Positions 1,681 through 51,213 of a stretch of DNA of 64,000 nucleotides are shown in pieces. The stretch lies in IMG/VR virus record IMGVR_UViG_3300036761_003567, positions 43,224 to 107,223 of that record; one strand, written 5' to 3'. The first letter of the stretch is position 1. Each line of letters begins with the position of its first letter. The notes beneath the pieces are model-generated. The model had not been told where the DNA came from. It saw nothing but the letters and a program-made list of their open reading frames with translations, and searched no databases. This DNA comes from a virus. The translations under genes were made by a program, and so were the position numbers.

Positions 1681-2388
1681 ATGACTTTCACTCAGGACTT
1701 CCCTGAAACCTCCAGTCTCCTACAATACTACCTCTTTCTGGATAGAAATATGAACAAGGATAGAAGGCACAGGATGCTGTCGTTGCTCGGAGCAGTATGC
1801 CACGAATGCCAGATGTGCGTCCTCGGAGAGCATGCCCAGGAAGTCAGGGGGCACAAATTCGACCCGCATTGCTGGAGTTCGATGAAAGTCTCAAAGATCA
1901 TGGTCATCGGACAGGGGCCTGGCCTGAATGAATGTCTGGAGGGGGTGCCATTCGTAGGGGATTCAGGCAAGAACTTCAATGAGGAGCTCGCGCGGCACGG
2001 CCTGACCCGGGACAATTTCTACATCAGCAACACGGTAAAATGCTATGCGCCTCAGAATCGTGCGCCGACGGAATCAGAAGTCAGTGCGTGTAAGCTCTTC
2101 TTACAGATGGAAATGGCCATTTTGAGGCCGGTGCTCATCGTGACCCTCGGGCAAGTCGCCTTCGACAGGATGTGTCCAAACCACGATTACTCGTCAAGCT
2201 TGGGGACGATTTCCAGAGATAACGGTTCGGGCCATGTGCCTGTCTTTGCGGTTTATCATCCGTCGCCGAGGAACTTGGAAGTGCCAGAACGGAAGGCGAG
2301 ATTCAAGAGACAGATGGCCGTCCTTTGTGCTCTCGTTAAGAAGATTGAGGCTGGCGCTCTAAAAGATAGCCCTGAGTCGTTTTCTTGA
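1681..2388 (+). CDS. uracil-DNA glycosylase, family-4-like
   Basis: CxxC cluster, GQGPG..E..G.PFVG.SG, N.VKC...NRAP, LGQVA and YHPS motifs. Confidence 0.85.
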   Translation: MTFTQDFPETSSLLQYYLFLDRNMNKDRRHRMLSLLGAVCHECQMCVLGEHAQEVRGHKFDPHCWSSMKVSKIMVIGQGPGLNECLEGVPFVGDSGKNFNEELARHGLTRDNFYISNTVKCYAPQNRAPTESEVSACKLFLQMEMAILRPVLIVTLGQVAFDRMCPNHDYSSSLGTISRDNGSGHVPVFAVYHPSPRNLEVPERKARFKRQMAVLCALVKKIEAGALKDSPESFS

Positions 2389-38684: not shown

Positions 38685-38738
38685 TGTGTGCTGGCCAATA
38701 AGAAGCTTGACCAGCTAGTCCGCAGTACTTATCCCACC

Positions 38739-38902
38739 GTTCGAAGCCTCCGCGTACGCGCGTGACGCGTCCAGAATCTCAAAAAGCTGATTCTCTCAAA
38801 GCTGATTCTCTCAAAAGCTGATTCTCTCAAAAGCTGATTCTCTCAAAAGCTGATTCTCTCAAAAGCTGGTCAGCGGCATAGTTCGAAGCCTCCGCGTACG
38901 CG
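38739..38902. repeat. 16-bp tandem array bracketed by a 22-bp direct repeat
   Basis: GCTGATTCTCTCAAA(A) at 38786, 38801, 38817, 38833, 38849, partial at 38865; gttcgaagcctccgcgtacgcg at 38739 and 38881. Confidence 0.95.
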
Positions 38903-38929
38903 ATGCGCTCGCCGAGAAGCGATCCGAAA

Positions 38930-39200
38930 CGGGACCGGCCGCCCGCCCCCCGCCCGGGCCCCTGGGGGCGGGGGGCAGCACGCCCCCCGGGCCCGCCGGC
39001 CCGGCCCACCCCCCGCCCCCGGCGGGGCGGCGCGACCCCCACCCCCGGCCCCAGCCAAACCCCCCCCCCCACCGGGGGGACCAGCAGCACCCGGACCCCA
39101 GCCCGCCGCCGTCCCGTCTCGGCGGCGCGCCGGAGTCCGCCGCGTCCGGCCCCGTGCCACACCTCCGCGTGTCCGGCGGTGTGTCTCGGCCCAGCCGGTC
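38930..39200. other. extremely GC-rich non-coding tract with C-runs (G-quadruplex potential on the minus strand)
   Basis: Many runs of 4 or more C, one of about 11, plus G runs; no credible gene. Confidence 0.8.
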
Positions 39201-39223
39201 CGGCAAACCAACGGAGGCTGCCA

Positions 39224-39532
39224 ATGGCAAGCGCCACCGCCGTCCGCCCCGTCGTCTCCGCCCTCGTCGGCCCCGTGTCCGCCCGCCCCCGCCCGCTCGT
39301 CCGCCCCGTCCGGCCGGACTTCCGGCTCTGCGACCTCCGCGTCCCCCCGCTGACCGAGCCCCAACTGCTGGCCCGCTACCCGCACATGATCCCCGGCACG
39401 CTCCGGCGCGACCCCGTCGCCAACAAGAACGCGGTCGACATCCGGTGCGCGTGCGGAGCGGTCCGGATCGTGTACACCTCGGACCTGTTCCACGTCCGGG
39501 CGTGCCGCGCCTGCAAGGCCTCCGGCAAGTAG
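39224..39532 (+). CDS. TSDL Zn-ribbon protein, paralogue 1
   Basis: GGAGG SD; YPH..PGT...CACG..RIVYTSDLFHV..C..C. Confidence 0.75.
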   Translation: MASATAVRPVVSALVGPVSARPRPLVRPVRPDFRLCDLRVPPLTEPQLLARYPHMIPGTLRRDPVANKNAVDIRCACGAVRIVYTSDLFHVRACRACKASGK

Positions 39533-39855: not shown

Positions 39856-40923
39856 GAGACCGAACGTGCAGAAGGCGGAGCAGACGGAGGAAGGGCGGGC
39901 GACTGCCACCCTCGGCGTGCTCGCGTTCGTGGCGATCCTGGCGATTCTGTGGCTGATCCTTTAGTGCGCTAAAGGATCATATATTGAGGAGGGCAGGTAC
40001 ATGAACCGCTGGACGCTGCTCCGCGCGGCCACGCACACGTACTCGGCCAAGACCGTTGAGGTCCTGGTCGGGAAGGCGCAATTGCCCACCCTGGTGCAGG
40101 TGGGCACGATCATGAAGGACGACCGCACCGTCGCGGAGGAGTTCGCCATGGACCTCGCCATCGAGGGGCTCTACCCCTTGGACTGCGGGGACCACTGGCG
40201 CGTCTACAACATCGCGGCGTAGCCGGCGCGCAAGGCCGCCTCCCTCTCGACCCAGGGAGGCGGATTTGCTTGCCGTATACCTCTTTTCAGGAGGGCAGAC
40301 ATGCCCCGCGTCAAGATCGTGGAGAGCGAGAAGCGGTTCCGGCGCGAGCCGGACCGGGCCTCGACCCTGCGCTTCTCCGTCATCGAGCGGCTGGGACCCG
40401 ACGCCCAGGAACGCCGTGAGCAGGAGCCGGAGTTCCTGCAGGCCCAGGCCGAGGGACGCGCGTAAGCAAGCCCCGACAAGACAGAGGGTTCCCACACCCC
40501 TGCACGTTCACTCGTGTCAGGAACTGGGCACTCTGGCTCTGACGTTTTGCGAGCGGCGGCCTCTTTCAGAGGGTCCCATGCCAGAGGATTTCGCCCTCAA
40601 ACCCGACCAGGTGAAGAGCCTGGCCGCGGCAATGGCCCTGTTGTACAAGATCTGCGACGGCTCGAACGAGTCCGTGCGTCAGGAAGCAGATCCGATCGCG
40701 TCGCTCTTGCGGAACTTCATCGCCAGGCACAAGTGAGGAGGGTCAGGCCATGACGAAGACCGAGCGAGTCATGGTGGCGAAGGTCGCCCGCGAGATTCGC
40801 GTCGTCATGCGCACCGTCGGCCGTCATGAGAACGGGAAGGTCAGGGTCTGGATTCGCCAGACCCTCACGCGCTGATGTGTGTCCGTTTCCACTTCTTTCT
40901 CAACTCTCTACAGGAGGTGTACC

Positions 40924-41232
40924 ATGGCGCCCGCCATCGCCGCCCGCCCGCTCGTGGAGGCCGTGAAGGTCTCCAAGCCGTTCCCGAAGGACGCCCTGTG
41001 GGCGCAGAAGAAGGGCCCGATCTCGGAGGCCCAGATCCTCGCGAAGCACCCGCACGCGATCCCCGGGACGCGCCAGTACGACGTCGTGGCCAGGAAGTGG
41101 GCCATGACGATCCAGTGCGCCTGCGGCGCCACGCGGATCGTCTACACCTCGGACCTGCACCACGTCCGGACCTGCCGGGCGTGCAAGGCCAAGGCCGACG
41201 CCGCCAAGGTGGCCGTCGCGGTCCAGGCGTAA
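40924..41232 (+). CDS. TSDL Zn-ribbon protein, paralogue 2
   Basis: AGGAGG SD; HPHAIPGT...CACG.TRIVYTSDLHHV..CRAC. Confidence 0.75.
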   Translation: MAPAIAARPLVEAVKVSKPFPKDALWAQKKGPISEAQILAKHPHAIPGTRQYDVVARKWAMTIQCACGATRIVYTSDLHHVRTCRACKAKADAAKVAVAVQA

Positions 41233-41272: not shown

Positions 41273-41376
41273 CAAGCCAGGAGCATCCACCCACCTGCAC
41301 GTTCACTCGCGCAGGACCTGGATGCTGATCAGCCAGTCCGTCTTCCACTTTCTTGTGGCTCCGACAAGGAGGCTCT

Positions 41377-41637
41377 ATGACCACGCCCGCCCAGCCGCTC
41401 GTCGTCGCCGAGGCCGCCACCAAGGTCGCCAAGATCGCCAAGGCCCCCCGCAACGTGAACGTCACTGTCGCGGACGGGAAGCTCACCCTCGTCGTCGACC
41501 TGTCCGTCAACCTCGGACCCAGCTCGTCCGGGAAGACGAACCTCATCGCCTCCGGCACCGCGAAGGTCGCCGGCTACGAGGGCGTGAGCTTCGGCCTCAA
41601 CGTCTTCAAGAAGGCGAAGAAGGCCGACAAGAAGTAG
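41377..41637 (+). CDS. small basic beta-rich protein (GPSSSGKT-type)
   Basis: AAGGAGG SD; LTLVVDL..NLGPSSSGKTNLIAS...GLNVF. Confidence 0.7.
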   Translation: MTTPAQPLVVAEAATKVAKIAKAPRNVNVTVADGKLTLVVDLSVNLGPSSSGKTNLIASGTAKVAGYEGVSFGLNVFKKAKKADKK

Positions 41638-42135
41638 GCTCATGGTCCAACGGGCGCGGCCGGACAAACGGGCGGACCGGAGGTGACCAAACCGGGAAAC
41701 CGGCGAAGGGGCCTCGCCCGCCGGCCGCGCTTTTGGGTCCTGATCCCGCGGAGCGAAAGCTCCCTAGTCTCACATGACCAGAGGAGGGCAAATGCCCCGA
41801 AAGTGTCGATCGCCCCCGGCCAATCCGCCTGAGAGATCCGCCGTGAGCCAGAGTGCCACGGCCGGTTGAGGCACGTCAGGCACCCGAACAGGGGTAGGCG
41901 AATGCCGAGAACCCCAGAAAGGTAGAGATCGAATACTCCTTACATAGCGCCACCTCCAGAGTGCCCATATAAAGGAACGGTTTGAAGATTTCTCGTTTCC
42001 CCGGGCAAGAGGTGGCGAACCGGTTCAGGACCGGCCTGACCGCGACGAGGACAGGACGTATAAAACCTGTCCGCTCCGGCTCCGCCAGGACACCGTTCAT
42101 TCGGGTCTGGCGTCCCGTCGCGGGGAGATCGGCCC
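41637..42135 (+). ncRNA. candidate structured ncRNA, copy 1
   Basis: Shares about six ordered blocks with 43134-43430; extensive stems. Confidence 0.55.
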
Positions 42136-42697
42136 CTTTCCAGGAAGGTGAAAATATGGACGAGCTGACGCAGCAGATGCGGGACCGGCTGGTCGAGATC
42201 CTGCTGACCAGCTCGAGAGATGAGGCGATCAAGTACCTGCGCAGGCAGGGCGTCCCCGAGGACCGGGCCATCGTCTACGTCGACGACGAGGAGAACCGGC
42301 TTCTCGCGTAGGTCGGCGCACAAATATGGGTCCGAACGATGACCGAAGTTCGGTATCCATGAAGAGAAAGGTAACCTGTTGGCAAGGACGGGGTTTCCTT
42401 GCCATTCCGAGTGCCACGGACGGGCATTGGATCGGCAATTGCCAACCTGTTCATCAAGCAACTAATTCCGACGGACGGAAAGGCTGGACGGCTGGTCAGC
42501 AACGTTCGGGCCGGAAACACGTGCGACGCGGTCGTTTCGAGAGTTTCGGGTTGTCGCGGTCTGGCAGGACCAGCCCGACCAGCAGACCAGCACCCGGCCT
42601 CTTGGATCAATTCTTCAACTCACACGCTGACACGGACCAGTTTGGACCGGTCACGGACGCCCCGGGAAGGGGAAGTGGCCACGTTTCAGGAGGGGAC

Positions 42698-42958
42698 ATG
42701 AAGATCGTGTCAGCCACGTACGCAGGCCTCGAGCGTCCGTTCACCAAGGTCAAGGTGGCTGTCCAGTTCGAGGACGGGACGGTGGACGAAGGCACGATCC
42801 TCTTCGAGAACGAGGGTCGGGACATCGATTTCGAGGGCTTCAAGGACGGAGACCGGGTCAGCGAGGCCTTCCCCGATCTCGATGAGGCGGACTGGGACAA
42901 GATCGAGAAGCCGGTGAAGGAGGGCATGGTGGAGTACGACGCGATCGTCGGACACTGA
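42698..42958 (+). CDS. small acidic protein
   Basis: AGGAGG SD; D/E-rich C-terminal two-thirds. Confidence 0.7.
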   Translation: MKIVSATYAGLERPFTKVKVAVQFEDGTVDEGTILFENEGRDIDFEGFKDGDRVSEAFPDLDEADWDKIEKPVKEGMVEYDAIVGH

Positions 42959-43133
42959 CACAGTTTCCGGCCTTTTCAGGAGATGGGACATGCCGAAGCA
43001 GCAGGACAACTCGACCAGCGCCGCGTGGTTCAAGCGGGACCCCCGCAAGGTGGATCGGCCCGCGAAGAACTTCTTCCACCGGCCGCTCACGGTCAAGCTG
43101 GACCATCTGGTCAGGCTCAAGCTCGTGCAGTGC

Positions 43134-43430
43134 GGCTCATGATCCAACGGGCGCGGGCTGGTATTCCGTAACGGAAGCAGGCAGGGAGTTGCCCCGCCGC
43201 CAGCCCGCGCTTTTGGGTCCTGATCCCGTGAGGCTTATGGGACGTCCGAGGACGAACGTGGACCTCCTGTTTGCTTCCAAGGCGCAGACCCAAGAAAGGA
43301 GGCCGGACCATGCGGTGAATGTGAAGGGAGGTGGCGACCCACTTCCGTCCCGTAGACCGGGCTGACCGCGACGACGCGCCAGGCCGTTAATTCGGGCTGG
43401 CCAACGGCGCCGCGAGTGGGCTGGTCTCCG
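43134..43430 (+). ncRNA. candidate structured ncRNA, copy 2
   Basis: Same ordered blocks as 41637-42135 with shorter insertions. Confidence 0.55.
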
Positions 43431-46067
43431 ATCTCTCAGTGTTATCAGGACGTCCTTACTCTTGTGTCTCTCCCGGATCAGGAAGACCCGGGAATCTTGA
43501 CGAACCGCAACTGAAATGGACACAACCCCGTGAGATCCCTTTGGGAGGAAGACAATGCGAGCCATAGACCTCAAGGTAGCCGTCCGGGTCGCGCTGCTGT
43601 ACGGGATCCGCGGCTTTGCCAGGGCGGATGACACGGGCATCATCTCGCAGGACGAATCGCAGCAGGGGATGCGGGCCATGCGCCAGTGGGAGAAGCTGCC
43701 CCTCGTCCTGCAGGGCGTGCTGGCCGTCCGGGACATGTTCGCGGCGGTGTGCTCCGATTTCAAGACATCGCCCGAGGAGTATGACGCGCTGATCCTCGAG
43801 TTCTTCGAGAAGGACTTCAGGCAGCCCCACGAAGGGGGCTAACCGAGCGGACCAACGTCGTGGACTCAATTAGGGGTTGGACCATGACCTTCGCCGAGAC
43901 GCTCGCTGCAGCCATCAAGCTCCTGGGGCCAGACGACTCCGTGTGCGTCGGCGTGGACGCATGGAGCTACCCGGGCGGCGACACCCGCCTGACGTGGGAC
44001 GTCTGGAGCGACAGCCGTCGCATGCACTGGTACGGATCGACGCCCGAGGCGGCACTCGCCGCCGTCCAGTCCACCTTGGACGAACTGGCGCACGACGCAC
44101 ATCTCCGGATCGAGGCCGTCCAGATGTAGTTCCGGATTCCCATTCCCCTCCCGTATTTCAGGAGTAGGCCCATGTTCCTGATCCGCGTGGTCGTAGCCCG
44201 TCTCTGGGCGGTCCTGACCGGCTTGGCGATCCGCAGCAAAAGCGGCAGGAACGCGTGCGCCTACTGCCGCGGGGCGGGGTGCGTGCCCGATTCGGGCCTC
44301 TTCTCCGAGGCGTGCCCGCTGTGCGGCGGAACGGGAACGTCCTCCCAGGAGGTGGCAAGGTGAAGCCGTCCGAACTCAAGGAGGGCCAGCACACCGAGAT
44401 CCGGACCAACGGGGTCTTGTGTGCCCAGTTCACCTTCGAATATGGGTGGCTGGAACTCGTCATGTGGGCGGATGACCAGGTCGTCGACGAACACATCCCA
44501 GACCACCTCCTGGCTGACAAGGTCATGTCCATCCGCTTCAACTACGGGACGTCCTTCCCCCGCAATCCCGAGGGTCCGAACCCGCTCACGCCCGAGGGTG
44601 CGGACGAAGCCTGGGTGCAGATCGAGGGAGACCTGCCACAGATCAAGGAGGCAATGTGATCTATACACAACAAGCTCTTGGTGAAGTACGACGAAAAAGC
44701 GGGATCTCCCTCAAGTCGATATGTGAGAGGAACGGATGGGCCACGACCGAGGCCCTGGCGCTGGCGAAGGACGCCTCTCTGGCCACGCTGGACGAGGTCG
44801 AGCGGCGCTACCTGGACGCGGCGAAGGCCTGCGTCGGGAAGGGGCACAACATCGAGGCGTCGTACGTCCAGGAGCTGACCGGCAACGTCATGCGGATCCT
44901 GAGACAGGAGGTGAGGGGATGAGGAACCTGGATTCATCCTCCCTGCCAGAGCCTCAATTAAGGGCGGGAGAGATCCTGATCCCATCCGGTCGCGTCGGCG
45001 ACGTCGACCTGTTTTCGGCCGCCAACGACGAAGACTTCTGCTCAAGCAAGGAAGAGAAGCTCAGGGTCCGGCAGCGGAACAGGAAATCAAGAAGGGGGTG
45101 ACGGGATGAAGGTCATGGTCCGACTCGACAAGCACAAGCAGAGAGCCGTCCGGGAGCAGAACTTCAGCCTGGCGATCAAGATCCGCTGCGAGATGCGCGC
45201 CCGGAGCTATTGGACCCTGTCCACCCTGCTCAGGTCGCTCCTGGGACTCGATCCCTTCGAGAACAGGCGGATTGAGAAGGCAGCCGAGGCCCTCGACCTC
45301 CTGGCGATCAGGAACGCCAGCAAGGCCGGCACCACCCACGAAGCCCTGTTCGGCGACGGCGACAACACCTACGGCGTCGACCTGGGAGATTTGAAGCTCC
45401 TGTAAGGAGATCAAGGTGAAGAAGGCAAAGTACTCTCCCATGGATGACCTGCGCCAGATCGTCAGCTGCATGGACGAGTACGGGCAGCTCGAGCACGAGG
45501 TGGAGGTCATACTCTGGAACGAGGACCCCAAGATGGGACAGGTCCAGGTGAAGCTCATCGACATGACGCTCGAGGATGGGGGCAAGAACCCGGCCTTCAC
45601 GCTCTCCTGGGCCGGGCGCTTCTGCGGCAGGCCGATGCTCCGGATCAAGGGGCCCAAGATCGACGTCCTGATCTCCCCCATCCCCAAGTTCGTGCTGGCT
45701 ATCCTGATGGAGGCGTAGCCGACCCGGGAATCTTGAAGAACCAAATGGGAGGTGGCATGATCGAGACCAAGACCAGCAGCAGGGACCAGGCGGTCGAGTG
45801 GCTGGAGAAGGCCATCCCGAACTTCGCCATCCGAGTGGCTCCCGTCTACCAGGCGCTCAACTGGACCTGGTGGATGAGCCCCGTCTCGCCGGATGCGGCT
45901 GCGATCGAGCGGGCGCTGCGGGAGCTGATGACCCACGTAAGGCAGGGGAGCACCTCTGCCGCGACGGGCGGGCTGGTGGTCGAGCTGACCGAGAAGTGCG
46001 GGACGCTGGAGGCGCGGCTGTCGATGCAGGTCGATGAGGAGCGCAAGTTCACAGTGGGAGGTGCCCG

Positions 46068-50646: not shown

Positions 50647-51213
50647 ATGGACGAGATGGAAGCGTTGCAGGCGCAGCTCGAGAAGAATCTGGGCCTCGGC
50701 CAGAGGCTGATCGACAAGCCGGCCAAGCAGACGCCGAAGGCCGACGTGCCGGTGCTGGTCGTCGCCGAGGGCCAGACCCAAGTCAAGCCGGTCAAGCCGG
50801 TGAAGACTCCGGGCCTCGCCATCGTCAAGGCGATCGTCGACAAGAACAAGAAGCTCAAGCCCAAGTCAGAGATCAATGCGGCCTCGGCGAGGGCGATGAA
50901 GAGCAGGAACCCGGACGGGACGAAGAAGCCCAGAATCCCGACGCTCAAGACCAAGGGGCCGGACGAGGCAGCCCTGCTCAAGAAGTACCCGCACGCGAAG
51001 GCGGGCACGCTCTACTACCAGCCCGCCGCCAAGAAGTGGACCATCGAGATCGCCTGCGCCAAGTGCAAGGCGGCGCGGATGGTACATACCTCAGACCTCT
51101 TCCAGGTCAAGCTGTGCGTAGCCTGCAAGGGCGCGAAGCCGACCAAGCAGACGGTATCCACGGAGCAGAAGGCCAAGAACATCGAGGCCCTCGCCAAGGA
51201 GATCCTGGGGTGA
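50647..51213 (+). CDS. TSDL Zn-ribbon protein, paralogue 3 (Lys/Pro-rich N-terminal extension)
   Basis: YPHAKAGT...CAKC..RMVHTSDLFQV..CVAC. Confidence 0.75.
   Translation: MDEMEALQAQLEKNLGLGQRLIDKPAKQTPKADVPVLVVAEGQTQVKPVKPVKTPGLAIVKAIVDKNKKLKPKSEINAASARAMKSRNPDGTKKPRIPTLKTKGPDEAALLKKYPHAKAGTLYYQPAAKKWTIEIACAKCKAARMVHTSDLFQVKLCVACKGAKPTKQTVSTEQKAKNIEALAKEILG

Follow-up and report, generated by a model that had tools for sequence, protein, structure and literature searches.

Do two large paralogous spacers in the early region of a phage genome belong to a new family of non-coding RNAs, or do they serve the transcript in which they lie? An earlier note, made from the letters alone, took each of them for one RNA with a conserved core and variable arms. 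We followed up this proposal in the window, that is, the whole stretch of 64,000 nucleotides to which all positions refer, in the remainder of the 107-kb record and in related contigs.

Two paralogous spacers in an early gene block

All of the sequence blocks that had been described for the two spacers, e1 and e2, are indeed present in both, collinear, on the plus strand and far above chance (Table 1). Block b1 has two matches at up to three mismatches where 0.04 are expected, and one copy used as a BLAST query against the 107-kb record retrieves only the other copy (E 1e-7 to 4e-3 per block). Each element is flanked by small genes of like orientation; it begins 0-36 nt past a stop codon and is over before the ribosome-binding site of the gene that follows. 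In e2, b1 includes the final three codons of gene D together with its stop. A start exactly at the upstream stop codon, as first described, holds for the window copies but not for the relatives L017, L009 and L008, in which a 34-36-nt hairpin spacer separates the stop of gene A from b1. No long spacer of the region lies beyond the initial 4.4 kb of the early block, and farther downstream the genes abut. Three such tracts (e1, 42312-42697 and e2) account for about 1.3 kb of a 2.2-kb stretch.

In the predicted folds b1 pairs with b2, which confirms the pairing proposed for them, and b4 pairs with the 3' strand of its own hairpin. Both elements, e1 and e2, fold more stably than shuffled sequences (z -3.7 and -2.5). 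They are modular, consisting of a D1 hairpin, a variable centre and a D3 hairpin, and the fold resembles beads on a string, with no supported long-range or pseudoknot pairing.

Table 1. Positions of the elements, blocks, hairpins and translation starts in the window.
Feature	Position	Strand	Details
Element e1	41637..42135	+	entire spacer, gene A (41377-41637) to gene B (42156-42311)
Element e2	43134..43431	+	initial 300 nt of spacer, gene D (42990-43142) to gene E (43555-43842)
Block b1	41637 (e1), 43134 (e2)	+	GGCTCATG(G/A)TCCAACGGGCGCGG
Block b2	41726 (e1), 43206 (e2)	+	CGCGCTTTTGGGTCCTGATCCCG; identity 23/23
Block b3	42009 (e1), 43328 (e2)	+	GAGGTGGCGA
Block b4	42029 (e1), 43355 (e2)	+	GACCGG(C/G)CTGACCGCGACGA
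Capped hairpin	42094 (e1), 43385 (e2)	+	cap CGTT(C/A)ATTCG
CG(T/C)CGCG block			common to e1 and e2
D1 of e1	41637..41748	+	long b1:b2 hairpin in the fold; UUUU at 41731-41734
D1 of e2	43134..43228	+	same design as D1 of e1; UUUU at 43211-43214
GNRA-capped hairpin	41750..41763	+	GGAGC-GAAA-GCUCC; loop GAGA in L013, L012, L006
Translation start and 25-codon sORF, e1	41782..41869	+	AGGAGGG-N4-ATG; ATG at 41792; ORF 41792-41869
Central branched domain, e1	41803..41936	+	closed by GUGUCGAUC/GAUCGAAUAC
Hairpin with b3, e1	41948..42017	+	closed by GCGCCACCU/AGGUGGCG
Three-tier hairpin, e2 centre	43230..43277	+	same architecture in window and L007
Translation start (mini-ORF), e2	43297..43318	+	AGGAGG, 7 nt, ATG CGG TGA
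D3 of e1	42028..42134	+	b4 (42029-42048) pairs with 3' strand 42116-42134
D3 of e2	43352..43429	+	b4 (43355-43374) pairs with 3' strand; cap hairpin 43378-43401
Free-standing long hairpin	40485..40534	+	CG-UUCACU-CG cap; between genes 40301 and 40578
Second free-standing capped hairpin	41282..41326	+	between Zn-ribbon gene (40924-41232) and gene A

Hairpin modules, centres and their relatives

Orthologues of e1 were identified in nine and those of e2 in six sediment-metagenome contigs, all from one metagenome scan. Identity to the complete orthologous copies is 92-100% in D1 and D3, 75-93% in genes A, B and D and 52-69% in the centres. The picture of structured elements with conserved blocks and variable arms is borne out. 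Conservation of b1, b2 and b4 is near-invariant, beyond the needs of pairing. Covariation, which had been named as a check, appears as compensatory or wobble-compatible changes in several stems (D1, the e1 hairpins, the e2 centre hairpin and D3), its support being limited by only three to six distinct sequences per element; GNRA loops are kept as GAAA or GAGA.

D1 looks like an intrinsic terminator on the coding strand. A GC stem of 10-13 bp is directly followed by UUUU, 0-36 nt past the stops of genes A and D, and this order of stem and U run holds on the plus strand only. Below the GC-rich upper stem there is a lower helix, which uses sequence 3' of the U run. The base of D1 comprises 27 pairs, with 91.9% of cells paired vs 30-58% in slid controls, and three of the pairs are changed on both sides. 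D1 of e1 has 100% identity to relatives in which gene A has only 75-80%; the branched tip of this D1, which contains a GAAA tetraloop (41692-41703), is replaced in L013, L012 and L011. The L007 copy of e2 has the classic form of hairpin and U run: its tip is reduced to an 8-nt loop on a 13-bp stem, with UUUU directly behind. The tips in the window are branched and 38-60 nt long, unusual for an intrinsic terminator, and the UUUU is short and can pair with CCAAC-GG of b1 inside the lower helix. A terminator scan did not call the D1 sites, and terminator-like sites were not enriched in a consensus scan. The two-storey design recurs in an unrelated terminator cassette at 40224-40275, which is itself repeated.

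D3 is a long irregular hairpin with a UUNAYU cap loop and no U run on its 3' side. In e1 it encloses an extra hairpin (42049-42075), where an A-U pair is swapped for G-C among relatives (pair 481-500), and the capped hairpin itself (42083-42112, loop UUCAUU); identity among complete relatives is 92-99%, L008 being excluded by the contig end. In e2 the cap loop reads UUAAUU in the window and UUGAUU in relatives, and an A-G mismatch (columns 23/56 of alignment A10) is a U-A pair in L007 and L016. Four UUNAYU-capped hairpins are present in the region, two in D3 and two free-standing (at 40505 and 41300); in the latter of these, 41282..41326, a G-C pair is G-U in L011, L012 and L013. A covariance model built from D3 of e2 finds every e2 copy but misses D3 of e1, the tract 42312-42697 and the capped hairpins that stand alone.

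The centres of e1 and e2 are unrelated to each other. The inner hairpins of the e1 central domain are replaced in L009 and L008, and the b3-containing hairpin of e1 keeps its closing stem with a C-G to G-C swap (pair 376-438) and has its interior replaced in half of the relatives. The 3' strand of the three-tier hairpin in e2 is largely different in L007, and wobble pairs of the window are Watson-Crick there. Block b3, listed among the shared blocks, was found in both window copies but is deleted from the e2 orthologues in L007 and L016.

As wholes the elements are non-coding, in line with the earlier note, and a coding reading of a whole element is rejected by indels of 1, 2, 5 and 14 nt among relatives outside the short sORF. 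The claim that they hold no credible ORF does not extend to their translation starts: e1 carries a 25-codon ORF and e2 an AGGAGG-N7-ATG-CGG-TGA. The start region of the e1 sORF resembles that of gene 40301 (GGAGGGCA..ATGCCCCG, MPR). No relative breaks its frame, L008 having an insertion of 12 nt that is itself in frame, and in L006 and L011 the sORF is in frame with the inserted gene X; two substitutions are synonymous and three are not, with no sign of coding selection. The e2 start shows no change in its Shine-Dalgarno sequence or ATGCGG but a variable spacer between the two, and L007 and L016 read MRR-stop. Both starts read as vestigial, that is, as remnants of start sites, and the e1 sORF may be functional rather than a remnant, given the frame kept in all relatives.

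Gene content differs among relatives at and around the elements. L016 lacks 92 nt of D1 in e1, about half of the module. Gene X (114 aa) is inserted in e1 of L006 and L011 between 41843 and 41844, with one further gene in L011; gene C is present or absent between two copies of a start motif (TTTCAGGAG..GGGACATG), and gene E is exchanged for other sequence past a conserved block. The breaks of these gene C, E and X events fall in the e1 centre or at start-site repeats; D1 and D3 are not where most gene indels break. The same variants, plus one additional junction inside b4, are present in DNA contigs of other runs. The half-deleted D1 of L016, the genes inside e1 of L006 and L011 and the D3-type hairpins standing alone elsewhere do not fit the proposal of a single RNA unit; what the elements share is two separable modules, D1 and D3, and not a core of the kind that a ribozyme, a decoy or another stand-alone RNA would have.

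Searches of the window and the other 44 kb of the record with Rfam 15 gave zero matches at the gathering threshold. At E up to 10 there were only two chance-level matches (an animal miRNA and an archaeal sRNA), and GOLLD and ROOL were absent; the lack of a relevant Rfam match is what the earlier note had expected of a new family. ARAGORN found no tRNA or tmRNA. The region had no BLAST match in 50,697 phage records, and exact 20-mers of b2 are absent from viral contigs and from 185,579 species genomes. The b4 19-mer has ten matches in viral contigs, which we attribute to chance: all are inside coding sequences that would read PTGLTAT, in unrelated GC-rich phages. For ten genes tested in 38.9-44.7 kb, Pfam and PHROGs gave no matches; gene A falls into unnamed viral clusters only in a protein atlas, and a profile of the Zn-ribbon protein retrieved no relative from viral contigs. 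We reject a group I or II intron, because the four genes A, B, D and E are intact and unrelated and because intron models give no match.

A proposed role in the early transcript and its closest parallels

We give about even chances to the reading that e1 and e2 serve an early polycistronic transcript as hairpins for termination, processing or stability, placed where gene cassettes meet in a hyperplastic early region. Judged by their sequence, they resemble hairpins of termination or processing more than a new RNA gene standing on its own. They would be paralogous cis-acting spacers of an early operon, all on the plus strand, rather than RNA genes. The lower helix of D1 would form only when transcription passes the U run. 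Transcripts stopping at D1 would end in a protective hairpin, by analogy with lambda sib/tI, and read-through RNA would form a rod of ~27 bp, a plausible target for a double-strand RNase or an attenuator. D3 and the other UUNAYU-capped hairpins would add further punctuation ahead of the next gene, with a possible role in processing or stability or as candidate protein-binding sites. The interval from D1 to D3 may be a cargo slot, filled here with leftover hairpins and start remnants and, in the e1 slot of relatives, with one or more genes.

D1 and D3 stay near-invariant while nearby genes are swapped; they may therefore mark, and perhaps help to create, module boundaries. What the sequences show is the anatomy of the elements, their conservation and compensatory changes, their modularity and the polymorphism of the cargo; termination, RNase cleavage and any role in recombination are our inference. 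An antitermination or other cis-regulatory role is possible as well. The size of the elements argues against the reading as punctuation, as 300-500 nt far exceeds known terminators or RNase III sites. If it is true, this phage lineage marks the borders of its earliest and fastest-changing genes with unusually large, near-invariant hairpin modules, and the same sequences set the reach of early transcription, decide the fate of the upstream message and persist as fixed points for the gain and loss of ORFan genes.

One close parallel to D1 is the retroregulator sib/tI of lambda, in which an RNase III hairpin contains a terminator. In both cases a hairpin and U run stand directly behind a gene, and nucleotides past the U run are needed to complete the helix, so that RNA ending there folds differently from read-through RNA. 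The sequences themselves are not similar, however, and the likeness comes from the predicted fold; the D1 tip is long and branched, and D1 occurs twice, in an operon of tiny genes. The early region of T7 has RNase III processing sites, R0.3 to R1.3, of about 60 nt. Like e1 and e2, these are paralogous, irregular two-storey hairpins between co-transcribed early genes near a genome end, here a possible one, but e1 and e2 have 300-500 nt with several additional hairpins, and no RNase III gene was found in the 107 kb here. The put RNAs of HK022 are cis-acting antiterminator RNAs of about 70 nt located just behind a promoter; they also form a pair of paralogous structured RNAs in early transcripts, but are far shorter and promoter-proximal. 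GOLLD and ROOL share with the elements a large, ornate structure and occurrence in phage DNA, but not a match in Rfam even at E up to 10.

At the level of genome organization, the elements resemble the promoter-early stem-loop (PeSL) cassettes of T4-type phages (PMC2839356, PMC4122927). These, too, are repeated intergenic terminator-like stem-loops among ORFan early genes of a hyperplastic region, their motifs outconserve the flanking genes, and genes are gained, lost and replaced around them. Unlike PeSL, e1 and e2 have no adjacent sigma-70-like promoter, exist in two copies only and are about ten times larger. The motif itself is broken in the replaced D1 tips, the 92-nt deletion in L016 and the b4 junction, but gene indels mostly occur at ribosome-binding-site/ATG repeats or in the e1 centre. 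Reading the elements as early punctuation would extend the PeSL and sib ideas from T4-type phages and lambda to an unrelated, uncultured large myophage.

A further parallel is provided by the untranslated repeats in the pre-early (first-step-transfer) DNA of T5, which contain DnaA boxes and form an inverted pair (bioRxiv 10.1101/866236). Large non-coding, palindrome-rich tracts in the earliest-entering DNA, conserved relative to ORFs and in one case split by a gene in some relatives, are common to both, but e1 and e2 lack DnaA boxes and repeat in direct orientation. We can only guess that a genome end lies at the 38.7-39.2 kb boundary.

Alternative readings

It is unlikely, although no other alternative fares better, that e1, e2 and perhaps 42312-42697 form a new phage ncRNA family, processed from the early transcript and acting as a decoy, sponge, scaffold or ribozyme. 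Elements of 300-500 nt, more stable than shuffles, in which closing stems are kept and tips vary, with GNRA loops and compensatory changes, are what such a family would look like. The blocks are better conserved than neighbouring genes, no known family matches, and three tracts occupying more than half of a 2.2-kb stretch are costly for a phage. However, the shared parts are two separable hairpin modules around unrelated centres, D1 of e1 is half deleted in L016, and genes sit inside e1 in L006 and L011. The terminator-like hairpin lies at the 5' end, with none at the 3' end, and would be self-defeating as the start of an RNA gene. The two copies also lack a common promoter, because the sequences upstream (40 nt before each b1) are unrelated coding DNA; no sigma-70-like promoter was found in or beside e1 and e2, and the only site in 38.6-46.5 kb, inside gene E, compares with 0.9 expected. 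Long-range or pseudoknot pairing finds no support, and the covariance model of D3 from e2 misses its e1 counterpart. There is a caution here for RNA discovery: that a phage spacer has a paralogue, is conserved and shows compensatory changes is not in itself enough to make it an RNA gene.

Equally doubtful, in our judgement, is a more ambitious joint reading with two versions. In one, large structured RNA modules of phages would form a new class, with e1, 42312-42697 and e2 as members. Cleavage at the D1 and D3 rods would release them from the first-expressed transcript, and they would then act as stable RNAs or ribosome-sensing switches, with the UUNAYU hairpin binding an early phage protein. 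In the other, D1 and D3 would be hairpin recombination sites of an undescribed cassette-shuffling system in large phages.

Somewhat less probable again is an action at the DNA level, with the palindromes bound or cut as DNA. They could give a signal for injection stop or entry, after the fashion of the untranslated T5 repeats, take part in replication or partition, or be attC-, REP- or PeSL-like hairpins at which gene cassettes recombine. Both strands fold equally well overall, e1 better on the minus and e2 better on the plus strand, and the invariance of b1, b2 and b4 exceeds what pairing needs. The elements lie 2.4-4.2 kb downstream of a boundary with iterons and a GC tract, a possible genome end, and the same GC tract opens contig L012. 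Variation of cargo genes at or near the elements would also fit, as would the T5 precedent, whose repeat regions outconserve nearby ORFs and include one split by an inserted gene (bioRxiv 10.1101/866236). On the other hand, the changes from wobble to Watson-Crick pairs make sense on the plus strand only, GNRA loops are kept and the U run is oriented for a plus-strand transcript. Because folding energy has no consistent strand preference, the case for selection at the RNA level is made by these features, the wobble changes among them being few. As to recombination, (G/A)TCCAAC at the 5' side matches the first integron attC box (RYYYAAC), but TTTTGGG at the 3' side fails to match GTTRRRY; a search of the 107 kb, by CheckV's estimate about 29% of the genome, gave no integrase, tyrosine recombinase or Y1 transposase, and gene indels mostly break at start-site repeats, not within D1 or D3. 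As to replication, the window has no match to the DnaA box TTWTNCACA.

Very unlikely, finally, is a pair of leader-type switches, in which the partner of the D3 3' strand, and with it the expression of the downstream gene, would depend on ribosomes at the e1 sORF or e2 mini-ORF. This strand does have two mutually exclusive partners, b4 or 41800-41821 in e1 and b4 or 43298-43317, with the Shine-Dalgarno sequence and ATG, in e2, and the ribosome-binding site of gene B is immediately 3' of it. The conserved Shine-Dalgarno sequence and ATG around a variable spacer, as well as the sORF frame kept despite the 12-nt insertion, can be read in the same way. Alternative pairings come easily in GC-rich sequence, however, and several pairs of the long-range e2 helix are broken in relatives; the downstream genes B and E are unrelated, with E replaced in relatives, and the sORF substitutions carry no mark of coding selection. 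The start regions in both elements resemble those of neighbouring genes, as deletion scars would.

Modules D1 and D3 in two early-region spacers

The window, which carries the two structured elements e1 and e2, spans bases 43224-107223 of a 107-kb IMG/VR virus record with a completeness of ~29% (CheckV); GC content is 57%. Gene products of the record include a tail sheath, a split DNA polymerase III alpha, a DnaB-like helicase, a gp32-like protein, a helicase with an intein and an actin-like protein (matching Pfam Volactin, E 3e-61); the record is therefore assigned to a large uncultured myophage. Nearly all genes from 39224 onward are on the + strand. Long spacers are confined to the first 4.4 kb of this block (140, 145, 78, 112, 144, 518, 386 and 412 nt), past which neighbouring genes abut or overlap; e1 is the 518-nt spacer between early genes A and B, and e2 is the first 300 nt of the 412-nt spacer between genes D and E. 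None of the ten early-region genes tested matched Pfam or PHROG.

All sequence blocks listed in the earlier note were found, collinear and on the + strand, in both elements, and matches to block b1 (up to 3 mismatches) number two against 0.04 expected. When either copy served as query in a sensitive BLAST search of the full record, only the other copy was returned, which confirms the paralogy of e1 and e2. Each is a string of independent hairpin domains; they have in common the modules D1 (holding b1 and b2) and D3 (holding b4), and their centres are unrelated. Block b3, present in both window copies, is missing from two e2 orthologues. Both window copies start at the upstream stop codon, but this does not hold for three relatives, where the stop of gene A and b1 are set apart by a hairpin spacer of 34-36 nt. 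The supposed lack of a credible ORF needs qualifying, since both elements contain a ribosome-binding site and ATG. These start-site remnants lie in the centres: AGGAGGG-N4-ATG with 25 codons in e1, its start resembling that of the gene at 40301, and AGGAGG-N7-ATG-CGG-stop in e2.

The upper storey of D1 is a GC-rich stem followed by UUUU. Folding bears out the proposed pairing of b2 with b1; in the lower helix GGCUCAUGRUCCAA pairs with UUGGGUCCUGAUCC, so sequence 3' of the U run is used. Across five distinct sequences the 27 pairs of the D1 base are 91.9% paired, versus 30-58% with the partner slid, and three pairs show changes on both sides. The tip is variable: e1 has a branched 60-nt insert with a GAAA loop, relative L013 has a different insert, and the L007 copy of e2 has a plain 8-nt loop, giving a textbook hairpin and U run. 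The two-storey design is also seen in an unrelated terminator cassette, whose U-rich run is enclosed by a lower helix and of which relatives carry several copies.

In D3, b4 is invariant and the 3' strand differs between e1 and e2, the pattern of helices and internal loops being the same in both. D3 is topped by a hairpin whose loop is CG-UUNAYU-CG. The window contains four such caps (0.46 expected), all of them in + strand spacers within the early region. Two belong to long hairpins that stand alone (40505 and 41300), which have CCUGC/GCAGG stems as against CCAGG/CUGG in D3. Genes B and C are separated by a third long structured non-coding tract (42312-42697), to which six relatives show 81-99% identity; positions 42553-42571 of the window tract are 84% complementary to b4 of e1, and L017-type copies contain a b4-like strand, CUGGACCGCGACGA, paired with GUCCCGGUCCAGC.

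Coordinates of features in the window, in relatives (L006, L011, L012) and on L028-L030 (the DNA polymerase III alpha ORFs precede the window)
Feature	Position	Strand	Description
D1	41637-41748 (e1); 43134-43228 (e2)	+	two-storey hairpin
D3	42028-42134 (e1); 43352-43429 (e2)	+	b4 paired with 3' strand
Terminator cassette	40224-40275; L012:1325-1385, 1860-1915		GCGYGCAAGGCCGCCUCCCU..AGGGAGGCGGAUUUGCYUGCCG
Zn-ribbon paralogues	39224-39532; 40924-41232; 50647-51213		small proteins, CxC..CxxC, motif YPH..PGT..YTSDL.HVR.CR.C
Gene X inside e1	L006:1288-1681; L011:899-1400		114 aa
Start-motif copies	42684-42700 (gene C start); 42974-42992 (gene D start)		TTTCAGGAG..GGGACATG
Invariant 48-nt block after e2	43471-43518		hairpin UCCCGG..CCGGGA, then AUCUUGACGAACCGCAACUGAAAUG
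Helicase, actin-like protein, adenylosuccinate-synthetase-like gene (coordinates in order as listed)	L029:6159-8972; L029:15852-17267; L028:14501-15775		helicase intein carries LAGLIDADG endonuclease
DNA polymerase III alpha ORFs	L029:17529-18878; L030:1316-3403		split gene

Conservation and cargo exchange among relatives

No similar sequence was found in public phage genomes, viral contigs or species genomes. The Zn-ribbon family beside e1 and e2, which alignment shows to have three paralogues in the window, has no Pfam domain, and its 26 relatives were seen only in metagenome protein sets. One metagenome scan with this family yielded 12 sediment contigs, nine with e1 and six with e2 (identity 74-100%), in which gene order is kept: Zn-ribbon gene, A, e1, B, (C), D, e2, E or a replacement, F. 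Identity to complete orthologous copies is 92-100% for D1 and D3; in these relatives nucleotide identity is 75-93% for genes A, B and D and 52-69% for diverged centres. Several observations point to selection on pairing. In e1, an A-U pair of the extra D3 hairpin is exchanged for G-C, and a C-G pair at the base of the b3 hairpin (its interior replaced in half of the relatives) is exchanged for G-C. An A-G mismatch in D3 of e2 becomes U-A, and a GAAA tetraloop becomes GAGA. The three-tier hairpin of the e2 centre keeps its shape despite much of one strand differing, window wobble pairs becoming Watson-Crick in L007.

Larger changes argue against a single RNA unit. L016 has lost 92 nt of e1 D1. 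Within the e1 central domain, between 41843 and 41844, L006 and L011 carry the 114-codon gene X together with a hairpin and a ribosome-binding site, and L011 has an additional gene there. The window's genome contains no relative of gene X. A GC hairpin of 13 bp and UUUUU precede this gene, which shares its frame with the 25-codon e1 sORF upstream, and from the sequence a joint product of 150 aa would be possible. DNA contigs of other sediment runs show the same e1 variants and another junction inside b4. Gain or loss of gene C takes place between two copies of a start motif: four relatives, and one contig from a different run, lack exactly this gene between the copies. Early genes in general have the start context YTTTCAGGAG-N6-8-ATG. 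Gene E is replaced by an unrelated gene, with the breakpoint at the end of the invariant 48-nt block, which is kept in all six relatives while both flanks change. A 22-nt partial copy of this block (45720-45742) precedes gene 45757. Thus, the early region is a hyperplastic array of ORFan cassettes in which D1 and D3 stay fixed; the interval that they enclose is a slot for cargo and is almost empty in this genome.

Proposed punctuation of the early transcript and alternative readings

The feature is real, conserved and previously undescribed, and is best read as an oversized, new form of known phage intergenic regulatory cassettes rather than a new RNA gene. Most economically, e1 and e2 are read as cis-acting punctuation of the early transcript. 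D1 stands at the expected terminator position with its U run oriented for the + strand, and termination is predicted there. Its lower helix needs downstream sequence, so terminated and read-through RNAs would fold differently; we propose for D1 the logic of lambda sib/tI, where the two RNAs also fold differently. In size, the D1 rod (~27 bp) matches a T7-type RNase III site. D3 and the other capped hairpins may also function in processing, stability or protein binding. Homology between the near-invariant blocks would, in addition, allow modules to be exchanged, a part played by PeSLs in phages of the T4 type (PMC2839356, PMC4122927). We infer these roles of D1 and D3 in termination, cleavage and recombination. 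The punctuation reading is weakened by an inconsistent strand bias in folding energy, by a size far above that of known punctuation signals, by invariance of b1, b2 and b4 beyond what pairing requires and by the e1 sORF frame, kept in every relative.

A discrete ncRNA family is unlikely. Rfam, tRNA and tmRNA searches gave no matches, in agreement with the suggested absence of a known RNA family, but the single conserved-core RNA of the earlier note did not hold, only D1 and D3 being common and the unit being broken in relatives. Somewhat less probable is a DNA-level site, resembling the T5 pre-early DNA untranslated repeat regions or a hairpin recombination site: the window has no DnaA boxes, neither an integrase nor a Y1 transposase was found in the 107 kb, and the wobble changes, few as they are, speak for RNA. 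A ribosome-sensing switch, to which the two alternative partners of the D3 3' strand would point, is poorly supported and quite improbable.

Features outside the early region

DNA polymerase III alpha is encoded by at least two separate ORFs, one with PHP and the first part of the NTPase domain, the other with the remainder, fingers and HHH; no Rfam intron match was found in the ~2.4-kb gap between them. At 38700-39220, directly before the first early gene, an iteron-like 16-bp array is accompanied by a tract of 270 nt that is almost pure G/C and contains long runs of C. A C-run tract of the same kind starts contig L012 (1-200), before its first Zn-ribbon gene, so the tract is a conserved lineage feature.
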